Virus genome (UHGV): UHGV-0042151 | Origin: a virus | DNA length: 35,904 bases | Direction: 5' to 3' (one strand) | In this document: one piece after another, positions 3,897-34,730 of the stretch | Position numbering within the stretch: the first letter of the stretch is position 1 | Layout of the letters: each line of letters begins with the position of its first letter | Position numbers and translations under genes: made by a program | Notes under the pieces: generated by a model | What the model saw: the letters and a program-made list of their open reading frames with translations, nothing else | What the model was told of the DNA's origin: nothing | The model's database searches: none

Positions 3897-4481
3897 TTAT
3901 TGTTTGTTTTTTTCGTTATGGTTGATGACAAATTCAATGTAACTTTCGATCTTTGCTTTCTCGGTTTCGGGTAACAATGCGTAGCGCGAGCGATCATAGT
4001 TGATGGTCGCAGGGTCGTGCGGGTGAATCAGTAATTCATAGCCGTGACGCCCGAATGCGGATGCAACATTCTCCAGGGTGGAAATGGAAACGCTGACCTC
4101 ATTGTTTAACAGGCGGCTGATTGTCACCTGGGCTACGCCGGATGCGCGGTGAAGTTTTCCCTGTGTTGAAAGGTCGCGGCTTTCGCTCATCCAGCGTTCC
4201 AGGTTGTGAGCCGCCAGCTGGCCAATGTCGCTTGGGCCGACAGGCTGAAAACCTTCCTGAGAAAGCGAGCGATCGATATCAAGCCAGTTACGGGGTTTAT
4301 TGGCGGCAGCTTCAATTTTTCGTGCAACCTGGTCGCCGATAACCTTCTTGCCAAGAGCCCAGCGGTTTACCAGATTTGCCTGAGTTCCAAGTTTTTCAGC
4401 CATCCGCGTCTGAACACCATTGAATTCACGGTCGATCAAGTCGTTGAGATTTTGCCTGCGGACGTCCTGGATACTTTTCAT
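3897..4481 (-). CDS. phage repressor-like protein with two tandem XRE/CI-type HTH domains, no S24 peptidase domain
   Basis: 194 aa; HTH-like segments 'MAEKLGTQANLVNRWALGKK' and 'ASGVAQVTISRLLNNEVSVSISTLENVA'; divergent from Cro-like gene; no Ala-Gly/Ser-Lys autocleavage module seen. Confidence 0.65.
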   Translation of the reverse strand: MKSIQDVRRQNLNDLIDREFNGVQTRMAEKLGTQANLVNRWALGKKVIGDQVARKIEAAANKPRNWLDIDRSLSQEGFQPVGPSDIGQLAAHNLERWMSESRDLSTQGKLHRASGVAQVTISRLLNNEVSVSISTLENVASAFGRHGYELLIHPHDPATINYDRSRYALLPETEKAKIESYIEFVINHNEKNKQ

Positions 4482-14709: not shown

Positions 14710-14786
14710 TGGCGTGGCATGCAGGATTCGAACCTGCGACCAACCGCTTAGAAGGCGGTTGCTCTGTCCAACTGAGCTAATGCCAC
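14710..14786 (-). tRNA. tRNA-Arg (anticodon UCU)
   Basis: Hand-folded cloverleaf: acceptor GTGGCAT/ATGCCAC, D-arm GCTC-AGTTGGACA-GAGC, anticodon arm ACCGC-CTTCTAA-GCGGT, T-arm GCAGG-TTCGAAT-CCTGC, 3' GCCA; similar to but distinct from E. coli argU as recalled. Confidence 0.9.
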
Positions 14787-32635: not shown

Positions 32636-33322
32636 TCAGAAGAACCCAGCCTTGTCGTTGATGTACTCCGCGTGGGTCTGGATATCACGCAGGCATTTGC
32701 TCACACCAACAATGTAGCAGAACATGGTGGTCAGCTCCGCCGCCGCGCCCGATACGTCGTGCCCGTCTTCCTGTAACTGGTTCAGCAGATTCATCAGCAG
32801 TGAGTTCTCCGTCAGGCCGAGAACACCAGACGGAGAATGAATCAGGCTGCGGTAGCCGGGCTTCAGTGGGGCACTGTAGGTTTTGTTCTCTATCTTCATT
32901 GCCTGCATCACTGCTGATGCTGTGGCGTTGGCTACCTGGTCGGCAACTATCTTTATGCGTTCTTCCTGCGGGAGCGAGTTTTTAATGTAACTTCCGGTGC
33001 GGCGGATCTGAGGAAGAACCTCACCTGTAACCCATTTACGAAAGCGGTAGGGGATAGTGCCTGGTGTCACTGCGTCGCGGCAGCGGAGGATCAGTGTGTA
33101 GAGGCCTGACTCGTTGATAATATTGGTTTCACCTTGACGGCCTAAGTTAAATTTAGCCCTTTCATCATCATCAAGAGATTTTATTGACATAGTGGGGTTT
33201 GTCAGTTGAAGAGCTTTAATAACGTCTTTGGCAACAAACCAAGGATTTCCATCAATAACAATGGCTCGAATGGTGGCTTCTGATTCAAAATGAAAAACAG
33301 ATGGGGTTACGTTAGCAGTCAT
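32636..33322 (-). CDS. Bro-N domain antirepressor-like protein
   Basis: N-terminus 'IRAIVIDGNPWFVAKDVIKALQL...GLYTLILR' fits Bro-N; C-terminal domain homologous to the 34473..34730 product; AGGTGA SD then ATG 33322. Confidence 0.65.
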   Translation of the reverse strand: MTANVTPSVFHFESEATIRAIVIDGNPWFVAKDVIKALQLTNPTMSIKSLDDDERAKFNLGRQGETNIINESGLYTLILRCRDAVTPGTIPYRFRKWVTGEVLPQIRRTGSYIKNSLPQEERIKIVADQVANATASAVMQAMKIENKTYSAPLKPGYRSLIHSPSGVLGLTENSLLMNLLNQLQEDGHDVSGAAAELTTMFCYIVGVSKCLRDIQTHAEYINDKAGFF

Positions 33323-33481
33323 AGTGATCACCTTTTAGTATGGTTAATCACCACCTGAGGTGCAAATCTCGTTGGTGGTGAGACGTACAGGGTTTGCACT
33401 ACCGGCTAAAAGGACCCGGCGCACCTTTCGGTGCCCCTGCACGTCCCACCATAATTCTGGCATGACTGTGCTATACGCATA

Positions 33482-33503
33482 AAAAAACCACGTCTGGCGT
33501 GGT
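33482..33503 (-). terminator. intrinsic terminator inside Bro-N upstream region (possible sRNA or attenuator 3' end)
   Basis: Minus strand ACCACG-CCAGA-CGTGGT followed by U7. Confidence 0.4.
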
Positions 33504-33593
33504 ATGCGCCTTTTAGTAATCCGGGGTGCAAATCCCGGCACTGGATTTTGCCAGTGCCCGATTACTATGGCACAAGAGGAGTGCGATGTAAAT

Positions 33594-33608
33594 TTACCGA
33601 AAAGGTAA
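33594..33608. promoter_or_regulatory. palindromic site TTACC-N5-GGTAA
   Basis: TTACCGAAAAGGTAA; about 90 bp upstream (minus sense) of the 33482 terminator. Confidence 0.45.
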
Positions 33609-33686
33609 TGATAAGCGCGAAAAAACATTAAAATCAACCGTATTTGGTTGATTGCGTTTAACGCTTGATCACCTGAAAGCAAGATA

Positions 33687-33701
33687 TTACCTTTAAGGTA
33701 A
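33687..33701. promoter_or_regulatory. palindromic site TTACC-N5-GGTAA upstream of 33722 gene
   Basis: TTACCTTTAAGGTAA, 20 nt before ATG 33722, just 5' of GAGGA SD. Confidence 0.5.
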
Positions 33702-33721
33702 TGTTATTGTGAGGAAAAGCA

Positions 33722-34450
33722 ATGGAAGTTTTCTGGATAGTTGTTGGTGTGGTTGCGGTGATTATTTACGTTATCAACCAGAACAAGACTAAGATCTCTG
33801 ATCGTACGGTCGTTAATCAGAACAAAACGATAAAGACCGAAGATGGGGAGATAACGATTAATCGTACACAGGTGATAGAGCACACATCTACTCAGTTTCA
33901 AAAAACTGGAGGTAACGCGCCTGATATTTCCGTACCTCCTGCTTATGATAGTGCGGTAATCCAGACATATTATAAACAGCAGGAGTTAGCAAAAGAGAGG
34001 CAACTGATTCAGCCAAAGCCGTTTACAGCTGAGCTTCCACCTGGAGTGTCAACGCGTCCGGCATATCATGGAAGATTCCCTGGTGATGACATATCGTCTC
34101 AGTCATTTAAAAAAGCACCTCAGGCAGTATCAGAGCCAGCAAGAATATCTTCTGTATCGCCGCCAAAAGAAGAATCAGCTAACAGAGTTTCAAGCGGTAG
34201 CAAGCAGTGCTTGCGATGCAGAATAAACCTTCCATATGAAAAATTCAGGAAATCGTCAAAAAATCCGGATGGATTGACTAAGTGGTGTGCAAGGTGTCTC
34301 GATGGCCCAAAGAATACACGTCATATGAAGTGGTGCCCAATTTGTAATGTCCGCAGAAAACGAACCAGCTTTTACCCTAATAATCAAAATGCGGACGGCT
34401 TAATGGCATGGTGCAAAACGTGCTGGGACGAGCACAAAGCGAAACGATAG
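33722..34450 (+). CDS. membrane-anchored protein with duplicated C-terminal zinc-ribbon (CxxC...WCxxC) modules
   Basis: N-terminal TM helix 'FWIVVGVVAVIIYVI'; 'CLRCRIN...WCARCLD' and 'WCPICNV...WCKTCWD'. Confidence 0.5.
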   Translation: MEVFWIVVGVVAVIIYVINQNKTKISDRTVVNQNKTIKTEDGEITINRTQVIEHTSTQFQKTGGNAPDISVPPAYDSAVIQTYYKQQELAKERQLIQPKPFTAELPPGVSTRPAYHGRFPGDDISSQSFKKAPQAVSEPARISSVSPPKEESANRVSSGSKQCLRCRINLPYEKFRKSSKNPDGLTKWCARCLDGPKNTRHMKWCPICNVRRKRTSFYPNNQNADGLMAWCKTCWDEHKAKR

Positions 34451-34474
34451 GCCGCTCTTGCGGCCTTTAAATTT
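34450..34474. terminator. bidirectional intrinsic terminator between convergent genes
   Basis: GGCCGC-tctt-GCGGCC followed by TTTAAATTT. Confidence 0.5.
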
Positions 34475-34730
34475 ACCGGGTTTGTTTTCGTAATTGTTCG
34501 GCACAATAGTCGAGATGTGTTTGCAGATCCTGCATAGACATCTGTGAGCTGGTGACGTAGTTAATCAGTGCAGTCAGTTCGGCAAGTGGGCCATCGACAT
34601 TAAATCCATCCTTATCGAGATCCCGGAGTAATTTCATCAAGTGCGATCCCTCCACCAGTGACCTGACGCCTCCCGGCGTGTGAATCCTTTCGGTAAATCC
34701 GTCTTCCAGTGGATAGTGATACTGCTGCAT
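34473..34730 (-). CDS. small antirepressor-like protein (85 aa), SOS-regulated
   Basis: GGAGAA SD then ATG 34730; homologous to C-terminal domain of Bro-N protein ('SLVEGSHLMKLLRDLDKDGFNVDGPLAELT' vs 'GLTENSLLMNLLNQLQEDGHDVSGAAAELT'); LexA box 22 nt upstream. Confidence 0.55.
   Translation of the reverse strand: MQQYHYPLEDGFTERIHTPGGVRSLVEGSHLMKLLRDLDKDGFNVDGPLAELTALINYVTSSQMSMQDLQTHLDYCAEQLRKQTR

Follow-up and report, generated by a model that had tools for sequence, protein, structure and literature searches.

The window analysed here, a stretch of 35,904 nucleotides from the virus genome UHGV-0042151, was assigned by sequence comparison to an E. coli prophage of the phiV10/TL-2011b/ZX5 type (Uetakevirus). 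It contains a structured interval flanked by a leftward gene with a Bro-N domain and a rightward 242-aa ORF (33722..34450). The Bro-N ORF extends over 32636..33331, with the ATG at 33322 as its likely start according to the PGAP annotation of an identical genome. Its product matched Pfam Bro-N at 5.6e-20 and PHROG 130 'anti-repressor Ant' at 1e-55, and is 82% identical to ORF4 of phage ZX5, overexpression of which lowered lysogeny and reduced prophage titres ~1000-fold (PMC9782041). E. coli MS 198-1 matches a 431-bp region of it at 100% identity, PGAP left the interval from the Bro-N gene to the following CDS blank in the identical E. coli genome, and 531 of 5,426 complete E. coli genomes carry sequence resembling the region. 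A preliminary description, made from the letters and a list of open reading frames, had taken the interval for structured non-coding sequence and offered two readings, either a short regulatory RNA of roughly 100 nt transcribed leftward or an attenuated leader of the antirepressor mRNA.

Scanning the whole window against Rfam at the curated gathering thresholds returned three matches, namely tRNA-Arg elsewhere in the prophage, isrK and C4, and no other family reached its gathering threshold anywhere in the window. The isrK and C4 matches stand in tandem on the minus strand, just upstream of the Bro-N/Ant antirepressor gene (Table 1). The C4 match is full-length (model positions 1-87) and scored 77.8 bits against a gathering threshold of 45 (E 9e-14), while the isrK match covers model positions 1-77 with 67.4 bits against a threshold of 50 (E 1.7e-12). 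With a permissive scan, a full-length match to RF03163 (c4-a1b1, "a1, b1 targets of C4 antisense RNA") was also obtained at 33570..33518 with 38.0 bits (E 4e-8), which is below the gathering threshold of 46.7 for that family; the overlapping isrK model covers the element better. ARAGORN found no tRNA or tmRNA at the locus.

Table 1 Features of the isrK/C4/ant locus, in order of position in the window. Site names a', b', a1, b1, a2 and b2 follow the P1 record.
Feature	Position	Strand	Remarks
Antirepressor gene, Bro-N domain, 228 aa	32636..33322	-	Regulated target; Pfam, PHROG
b2, CUAAAAGG	33338..33331	-	ant leader; overlaps Shine-Dalgarno AAGGUGA (33334..33328)
a2, UUUGCAC	33360..33366	-	ant leader; loop of small hairpin GAG-AUUUGCAC-CUC
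C4 antisense RNA	33371..33456	-	RF01695, 77.8 bits
a', GUGCAAA	33393..33399	-	Single-stranded, between C4 hairpin 2 and closing stem
b', CCUUUUAG	33406..33413	-	Loop of C4 hairpin 2
C4 hairpin 1	~33419-33438	-	GGCGCACC-tttc-GGTGCCCC
IsrK-family RNA ('a1b1' equivalent of c4 system)	33481..33557	-	RF01394, 67.4 bits
Intrinsic terminator	stem 33503..33487, U7 33487..33481	-	After linker; 3' end of isrK match
b1, CUAAAAGG	33509..33516	-	IsrK linker, unpaired in centroid fold; complement of C4 b'
a1, UUUGCAC	33526..33532	-	Loop of IsrK hairpin 2; complement of C4 a'
IsrK hairpin 2 (CCGGG/CCCGG)	33537..33522	-	
IsrK hairpin 1 (CACTGG/CCAGTG)	33557..33538	-	
Sigma-70-like promoter (predicted)	33564..33592	-	-35 TTTACA 33592..33587, 17-nt spacer, TG, -10 CATAGT 33569..33564
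Palindrome, 15 bp, TTACCGAAAAGGTAA	33594..33608		Directly upstream of -35 hexamer, -37 to -51 from predicted start

Both RNA segments fold better than expected by chance. On the minus strand, the 86-nt C4 segment reached -49.0 kcal/mol (z -5.9, with none of 200 shuffles as good) and adopted a 17-bp closing stem around two hairpins, whereas the plus strand of the same segment reached only -36.8 kcal/mol, so that the minus strand folds 12 kcal/mol better. The 77-nt IsrK segment folded at -25.4 kcal/mol (z -2.3, a value equalled by 1 of 200 shuffles). For the whole 258-nt minus-strand leader a z of -5.0 was obtained against shuffles, and in its minimum free energy structure the IsrK and C4 folds stay separate. 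These values bear out the preliminary description of the interval as structured, and the elements that it had picked out are all present, no more than a few bases from where it had placed them: the CACTGG/CCAGTG hairpin is IsrK hairpin 1, the CCGGG/CCCGG hairpin is IsrK hairpin 2, the -tttc- hairpin near 33417-33438 is C4 hairpin 1, the minus-strand hairpin with a U7 tract is the intrinsic terminator, and a palindrome does lie at 33594. What it had missed was the C4 RNA as such, including the 17-bp closing stem and the second hairpin, and the complementarity of loops and targets at the ant ribosome-binding site.

On the plus strand, too, the region folds better than its shuffles (z -3.4 and -3.7), as is expected for any strongly paired DNA. 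This is the one observation that would favour an antisense RNA of the P22 sar kind, encoded on the plus strand across the ant ribosome-binding site, which the preliminary description had named as a precedent. Like the module found here, sar, a small RNA, restricts the synthesis of antirepressor through pairing close to the ant ribosome-binding site; it is, however, a cis-antisense RNA, made from the opposite strand and fully complementary, whereas the regulator here is encoded on the same strand, co-transcribed with its target, and makes two short loop/target contacts. The promoter scan gave no plus-strand promoter-like site in 33300-33600, no sar-like Rfam match or any further family at threshold was found, the minus-strand C4 fold is the better one by the margin given above, and the Rfam matches, the terminator and the U-tract are all on the minus strand. 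We therefore give a sar-like RNA almost no chance, and the P22 precedent falls away.

The minus-strand element upstream of C4 is organised like an isrK locus: it comprises three hairpins, the third being an intrinsic terminator, and on the same strand a C4-like RNA comes next and then an antirepressor-like gene. The start predicted by the promoter scan, ~33557, coincides exactly with the 5' end of the isrK match, and the -10 hexamer, 7 nt upstream of IsrK hairpin 1, occupies the same place as the -10 (TATAGT) of the P1 promoter P1c4 (P51b). No LexA box of the form CTGT-N8-ACAG was seen by eye near the promoter. By homology with the 77-nt P1 c4 RNA, the mature C4 RNA is predicted to comprise 33450..33374, likewise 77 nt. 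In P1 the primary transcript is processed to the 77-nt c4 RNA, with RNase P acting at the 5' end. Of the two readings offered earlier, the leftward direction and the terminator end of the short RNA thus stand as predictions, with a length of 77 nt in place of the ~100 nt suggested, and transcripts reading through the terminator would form the leader of the antirepressor mRNA. The two alternatives would then be two faces of one system, and both were in effect correct.

Searching the flanks of C4 for complements of its unpaired segments revealed exact complements to both a' (7 nt) and b' (8 nt), once upstream and once downstream of the C4 RNA. In minus-strand sense the 8-mer CUAAAAGG occurs twice in the 35.9 kb, as b1 and as b2 only. 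The position of a1 agrees with that of the annotated a1 in P1. When RNAduplex energies of a' and b' with their real targets were compared with those for shuffled targets, only the interaction of a' with IsrK was significant (17/1000), and the other three of the four short interactions were not. Because contacts of this length are too short for energy to judge, we turned to co-variation across loci, comparing cognate with non-cognate pairs.

Loci obtained through the Bro-N protein were at least 80% identical and too similar to inform, and since they lacked diversity a degenerate C4 pattern, which fixes hairpin 2 and the GGG/CCC pairs, was used for a scan that yielded 120 viral-contig loci. Pooling them with the loci already obtained left 90 distinct C4 cores, in which a' and b' are very diverse. 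Among 86 loci, a complement of at least 7 nt to b' was present downstream (b2) in 85% of cognate against 4.9% of non-cognate comparisons, and upstream (b1) in 64% against 6%; for a' the corresponding figures were 94% against 12% downstream (a2) and 87% against 13% upstream (a1). The spacing of these sites from the C4 core is constant, with a1 ~95 nt and b1 ~79 nt upstream, a2 ~23 nt and b2 ~53 nt downstream, and a T-run lies ~50 nt upstream of the core in most loci. The next ORF has its start codon ~7-12 nt past b2 in 72 loci. Different a' sequences (ACGCCAA, GUUCCAA), again with matching a1 and a2, occur in relatives whose Ant protein is the same or nearly identical.

The same collection was used for analysing base-pair covariation. 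Over 77 sequences, 96.1% of C4 cells were paired, with 331 cells showing double-sided changes against 89 in the shuffled control, and the covariation score was 0.539, compared with 0.161 after shuffling and no more than 0.123 with slid partners; C4 helix 3 was set by the search pattern and is hence uninformative for covariation. IsrK hairpins 1 and 2 were paired in 90.5% of cells over 63 sequences, with a score of 0.467 against 0.161 shuffled. The terminator stem was left out of this count because the MAFFT alignment of the IsrK region loses register there. Covariance analysis across related phages, which the preliminary description had proposed as a check, came out in favour of both RNAs.

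Family membership, covarying structures, complementarities that vary together and the identity of the target gene, all read from sequence comparison, indicate that the region is very probably an antisense-RNA immunity module of the P1 immI type that controls the prophage antirepressor.

An open frame does cross the locus. The 112-aa ORF 33344..33682(-) begins with TTG, and the preliminary description had seen no RBS and an implausible composition. The ORF has no Pfam match, and its closest relatives do not preserve it: at 84-87% identity they already have other stop-free frames, and loci with an identical Ant protein have the frame broken by a 1-nt indel within the C4 loop. Substitutions across the interval track base-pair covariation rather than codon structure. 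A protein-coding reading of this ORF was rejected on the grounds of its missing Pfam match and unkept frame.

In related phages the Pfam family Phage_ASH matches the translation of the RNA locus, where the frame is open in many cases. A different frame across C4 from that of the 112-aa ORF gives a weak Phage_ASH match (16.5 bits, E 0.012), and the ZX5 record carries a 37-aa 'ash family protein' annotated over the same place. In the window, however, the Ash frame is closed, with 23 stop-free codons. Given the loss of frame, the indel and the base-pair-type substitutions described above, we regard it as exceedingly improbable that the region encodes a protein, be it the 112-aa ORF or a member of the Ash family.

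In the Ash frame a small ORF starts at the C4 5' end, where an AUGG is conserved among related loci. From this AUG the window has an ORF of 17 codons that stops inside C4, ~77 nt before the ant start. In other loci it is anywhere between 14 and 180 codons long, or longer still, and may continue into the gene that follows. The short ORF here and its varying length elsewhere argue against a conserved peptide and against translational coupling of the orf45 type in this phage.

Among the closest known systems is the immI region of phages P1 and P7, for which we relied on the GenBank annotation of P1 and on secondary citations. The P1 record gives the order C1 operator Oc4, P2c4, P1c4, a1, b1, the 77-nt c4 RNA, a2, b2 and icd-ant, and names a2 and b2 as the sites for C4 repression of icd/ant translation. 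In the P1 sequence, a' is formed by the 3' single-stranded segment of C4 and b' by the hairpin-2 loop; a1 lies in the loop of the second upstream hairpin, and b2 adjoins the icd Shine-Dalgarno. Promoter, a1, b1, terminator-like hairpin, C4, a2, b2 and ribosome-binding site follow one another in the same order in the window. Shared as well are the C4 fold with a long closing stem and two hairpins, the placing of b' in a loop and of a' in the 3' single strand, complementarities of 7-8 nt, b2 at the ribosome-binding site, an antirepressor gene downstream, a predicted mature RNA of 77 nt and the distance from the -10 to hairpin 1. The isrK model also picks up the a1b1 region of P1 with 35 bits, terminator-like hairpin included, from which we conclude that IsrK and the P1 a1b1 element are homologous.

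The two systems differ in several respects. P1 is a plasmid prophage, whereas the window belongs to an integrated prophage of the podovirus type (Uetakevirus); the antirepressor is a Bro-N protein here and Ant1/2 in P1; and the sequences of a' and b' differ, and with them the specificity. The region between C4 and ant, with ~50 nt from C4 to the ant ATG, contains no icd-like ORF, so that b2 lies directly on the ant Shine-Dalgarno. Such an ORF is a trait of P1/P7 rather than of the RNA family; the APSE phages of Hamiltonella are also without it. APSE phages share annotated C4 and isrK RNAs upstream of a Bro-N gene (records; PMC7313666), and their DNA is ~74% identical over the RNA region of the window, with a different host and phage lineage; their records use a' for the loop and b' for the 3' segment, and so invert the P1 usage.

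In Salmonella prophage Gifsy-1, isrK (34316..34240), a C4 match (34214..34131, 69 bits) and the antirepressor-like gene STM2616 (34076..33513) stand in the same tandem order, and the "orf45/STnc1160" region of Hershko-Shalev et al. (PMC4825925) is therefore a C4 homologue. A stable processed RNA, STnc1160, was reported downstream of IsrK there (PMC4825925). Both loci have a 77-nt IsrK with three hairpins and a terminator, read-through that yields the ant leader, and complements to the downstream RNA within IsrK. Upstream of the Gifsy-1 isrK lies an AntQ cascade, and nothing comparable adjoins the locus in the window. Experiments in Gifsy-1 showed that IsrK activates the translation of its own read-through mRNA in trans; Hfq binding and trans-activation by IsrK are reported for Gifsy-1 only (PMC4825925), and for the prophage studied here Hfq dependence, like the promoter, the terminator efficiency and the processing sites, is a prediction.

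The Gifsy-1 authors explained activation by a conformational switch and a translated upstream orf45, and not by C4 titration (PMC4825925). Carried over to the window, their model would have a silent read-through leader opened by the short IsrK, with translation of an orf45 or 'Ash' frame coupled to ant, and the C4-like region would be mRNA with a leader peptide rather than a trans-acting antisense RNA. That it is the experimental model of an isrK-type locus speaks for it, as do the conserved AUGG and the frame that is open in many relatives and matches Phage_ASH. In Gifsy-1, however, an ORF of 45 codons over the C4-like region is reportedly translated and coupled to anrP, whereas the ORF in the window ends after 17 codons and so far short of ant that coupling is implausible, and its length fluctuates widely across loci as described above. 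The minimum free energy structure of the leader keeps the IsrK and C4 folds apart, and activation of this kind alone leaves the co-variation of a' and b' with a2 and b2 at the ribosome-binding site unexplained. We thus consider it quite improbable that the locus works in this way only.

Satellite P4, compared here through the literature, offers another arrangement in which an antisense RNA, CI, is processed from the leader of its own operon and finds sites upstream (seqA) and downstream (seqC). The profiles of C4 and isrK detect relatives of P4 CI and seqA (PMC10111431, a 2023 paper; also discussed in PMC4825925). On this model the C4-like RNA would pair with an upstream, seqA-like site in the IsrK region and with a downstream, seqC-like site, mainly bringing about premature termination of transcription; in agreement with it, a1 and b1 stand just before an intrinsic terminator and are about as conserved as a2 and b2. 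What P4 terminates prematurely is transcription of its replication operon, with no occlusion of an antirepressor ribosome-binding site, whereas b2 here sits consistently on the Shine-Dalgarno with the start codon 7-12 nt downstream, the signature of translational repression in P1. Termination as the main outcome therefore seems unlikely to us, bearing in mind that P4-type termination and occlusion of the ribosome-binding site are not mutually exclusive. The right precedents for the locus are P1/P7 c4 (immI), the Gifsy-1 isrK locus and P4 CI/seqA.

The palindrome beside the promoter belongs to a dispersed set. The motif TTACC-N5-GGTAA has 11 exact sites in the window against 0.03 expected, some of them paired 62 bp apart, and one lies between a 194-aa helix-turn-helix (HTH) ORF (3897..4481, minus strand) and the rightward genes that follow. 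This HTH ORF is identical at 194 of 195 positions to p40 of phiV10, a protein with two HTH motifs that is annotated as similar to a putative repressor of epsilon15 and was taken as the repressor in the ZX5 study (PMC9782041). Phage phiV10 shares the motif, with 8 sites at homologous places; by its annotation 7 are intergenic, and one of the eight lies upstream of phiV10's own isrK/C4/Bro-N region. The palindrome is, on this distribution, a candidate binding site for the prophage repressor. The dispersed sites resemble the C1 operators of P1, which are scattered as well and of which one, Oc4, lies at the c4 promoter, with the difference that the candidate operator here is a symmetric 15-bp palindrome and the P1 C1 operator an asymmetric 17-bp sequence. 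A site centred near -44 could activate the isrK/c4 promoter rather than repress it.

In the scheme that we infer, from transcription and RNA processing to the direction of control, the decoy and the operator, the leftward promoter would fire at ~33557 and most transcripts would stop at the intrinsic terminator, releasing a 77-nt IsrK-family RNA in which a1 and b1 are unpaired. Transcripts that read through would comprise C4, predicted to be excised as the 77-nt RNA, and then the ant leader. Pairing of C4 a' and b' with a2 and b2 in the leader would block translation of Bro-N/Ant, because b2 covers the Shine-Dalgarno, and the prophage repressor would therefore stay active. As in P1, transcription probably also aborts, although with no icd-like ORF present the P1 coupling of translation to Rho-dependent termination may not apply. 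The IsrK-type RNA, with its a1 and b1, is most likely a competitor that titrates C4 and so turns ant on, as IsrK does in Gifsy-1, and such decoy activation would be consistent with the trans-activation by Gifsy-1 IsrK of its own read-through mRNA. The palindrome beside the -35 probably ties the promoter to the prophage repressor. That the IsrK-type RNA is, in general, a terminator-released decoy titrating C4, and that the phiV10-like switch is at the same time wired to dispersed 15-bp repressor sites as in P1, is a joint proposal that we put forward tentatively, as possible but on balance doubtful.

The system as such is already known, since curated Rfam families match it and experimental work on it has been done in P1 and Gifsy-1, and the window is an un-annotated instance that reveals no new kind of mechanism. 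The analysis does supply a concrete annotation for ~230 bp left blank by RefSeq in an identical genome, and removes a spurious 112-aa ORF. Caution is also advised with small "ash family" ORFs called at this place, which may be read from a structured-RNA gene. For the biology of phiV10/ZX5-type prophages, the module explains how the antirepressor probably stays silent, and this silencing bears on spontaneous induction, which was left unexplained by the ZX5 study (PMC9782041). If the decoy reading is true, P1 a1b1, P4 seqA and Gifsy-1 IsrK would be forms of one 'antisense plus anti-antisense' switch. A difference in specificity of the a' type has been reported as the basis of P1/P7 heteroimmunity, and, if the proposal is true, the a and b specificities could be exchanged independently between otherwise near-identical prophages and would amount to a combinatorial heteroimmunity code.

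The palindrome (a)TTACC-N5-GGTAA(t) occurred in 11 exact copies in the window, where shuffled sequences gave an expectation of 0.03, and some of the copies were paired at a spacing of 62 bp. In the related phage phiV10 we found eight such sites at positions homologous to those of the window, seven of the eight being intergenic, and its repressor with two HTH domains was 99.5% identical to that of the window. The set looks like a dispersed operator network, a candidate target for the repressor, resembling the dispersed operators of the P1 repressor C1.

Several other elements were also observed. The 242-aa ORF (PHROG 6762), which diverges from the isrK promoter, has a seemingly hydrophobic N-terminus and a C-terminal half with repeated Cys-pair motifs and weak matches to the Stc1, endonuclease VII and Lar-like families. 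Homology of the 85-aa ORF to the Ant/Bro-N protein is limited to the C-terminal domain of the latter (PHROG 450, 9e-48; PHROG 15539), and the ORF may be a stand-alone fragment or an antirepressor modulator. An 8-bp hairpin (AATCAACC-N6-GGTTGATT), which on the minus strand runs into a T-rich tail, lies between the two palindromes upstream of the isrK promoter and may shield that promoter against leftward read-through. The window also carries a phage-borne tRNA-Arg (anticodon TCT), and Gifsy-1 likewise has a tRNA-Arg near its isrK locus.

Coordinates of the features in the window and in related sequences
Feature	Sequence	Coordinates (strand)	Remark
Palindrome, exact, 15 bp each	window	3630, 3692, 4537, 6975, 7037, 11901, 15109, 32549, 33594, 33687, 34807	33687: 20 nt upstream of the ATG of the 242-aa ORF; 34807: the 85-aa ORF's own upstream copy
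Palindrome, one mismatch, three more sites	window	4585, 5047, 11919	
85-aa ORF	window	34473-34730(-)	
242-aa ORF	window	33722-34450(+)	
8-bp hairpin	window	33632-33653	
tRNA-Arg	window	14710-14786(-)	
Region listed for Phage_ASH	window	33371-33557	
Region listed for Phage_ASH	L204	1216-1329(-)	
C4 a'/b' compared	window	33393-33413	
C4 a'/b' as named in the APSE record	APSE-7 (L001, LR794147)	1589-1612	

Conceptual translation of the isrK-terminator-C4 region of related loci gave matches of 54-66 bits to PF10554 'Phage_ASH' (profile positions 1-96; gathering threshold, 26 bits), the observation covering the isrK-C4 regions of L089, L130, L179 and L110 together with the two regions in the table. 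In the window the Ash frame is closed, and the sole match, sub-threshold at 16.5 bits, fell in the 3' portion of the track ORF of 112 aa. A 37-aa 'ash family protein' annotated in the record of phage ZX5 spans C4, a2 and b2. In Gifsy-1, orf45 starts at the AUG conserved at the C4 5' end. Either the Phage_ASH family largely represents read-through of a gene for a structured RNA, or the locus has a dual use.

In the APSE GenBank records a' denotes the hairpin-2 loop of C4 and b' its 3' single-stranded segment, the opposite of P1 nomenclature. Complete isrK-C4-target modules stood in tandem in two related contigs, three of them 656 bp apart in L130 and two in L105, with a'/b' specificity differing between modules. 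Behind each module comes a Rha-like ORF, near-identical from one module to the next and ~120 aa long (187 aa once). These arrays may be stacked immunity cassettes.

Comparison of the window with L002, L004, L091 and L151 showed that, among prophages whose Ant proteins are identical or nearly so, a' varied (GUGCAAA, ACGCCAA or GUUCCAA) and b' varied slightly, while a1/a2 and b1/b2 tracked each prophage's own changes. This matched variation indicates that the specificity determinants are exchanged independently of the gene they regulate.
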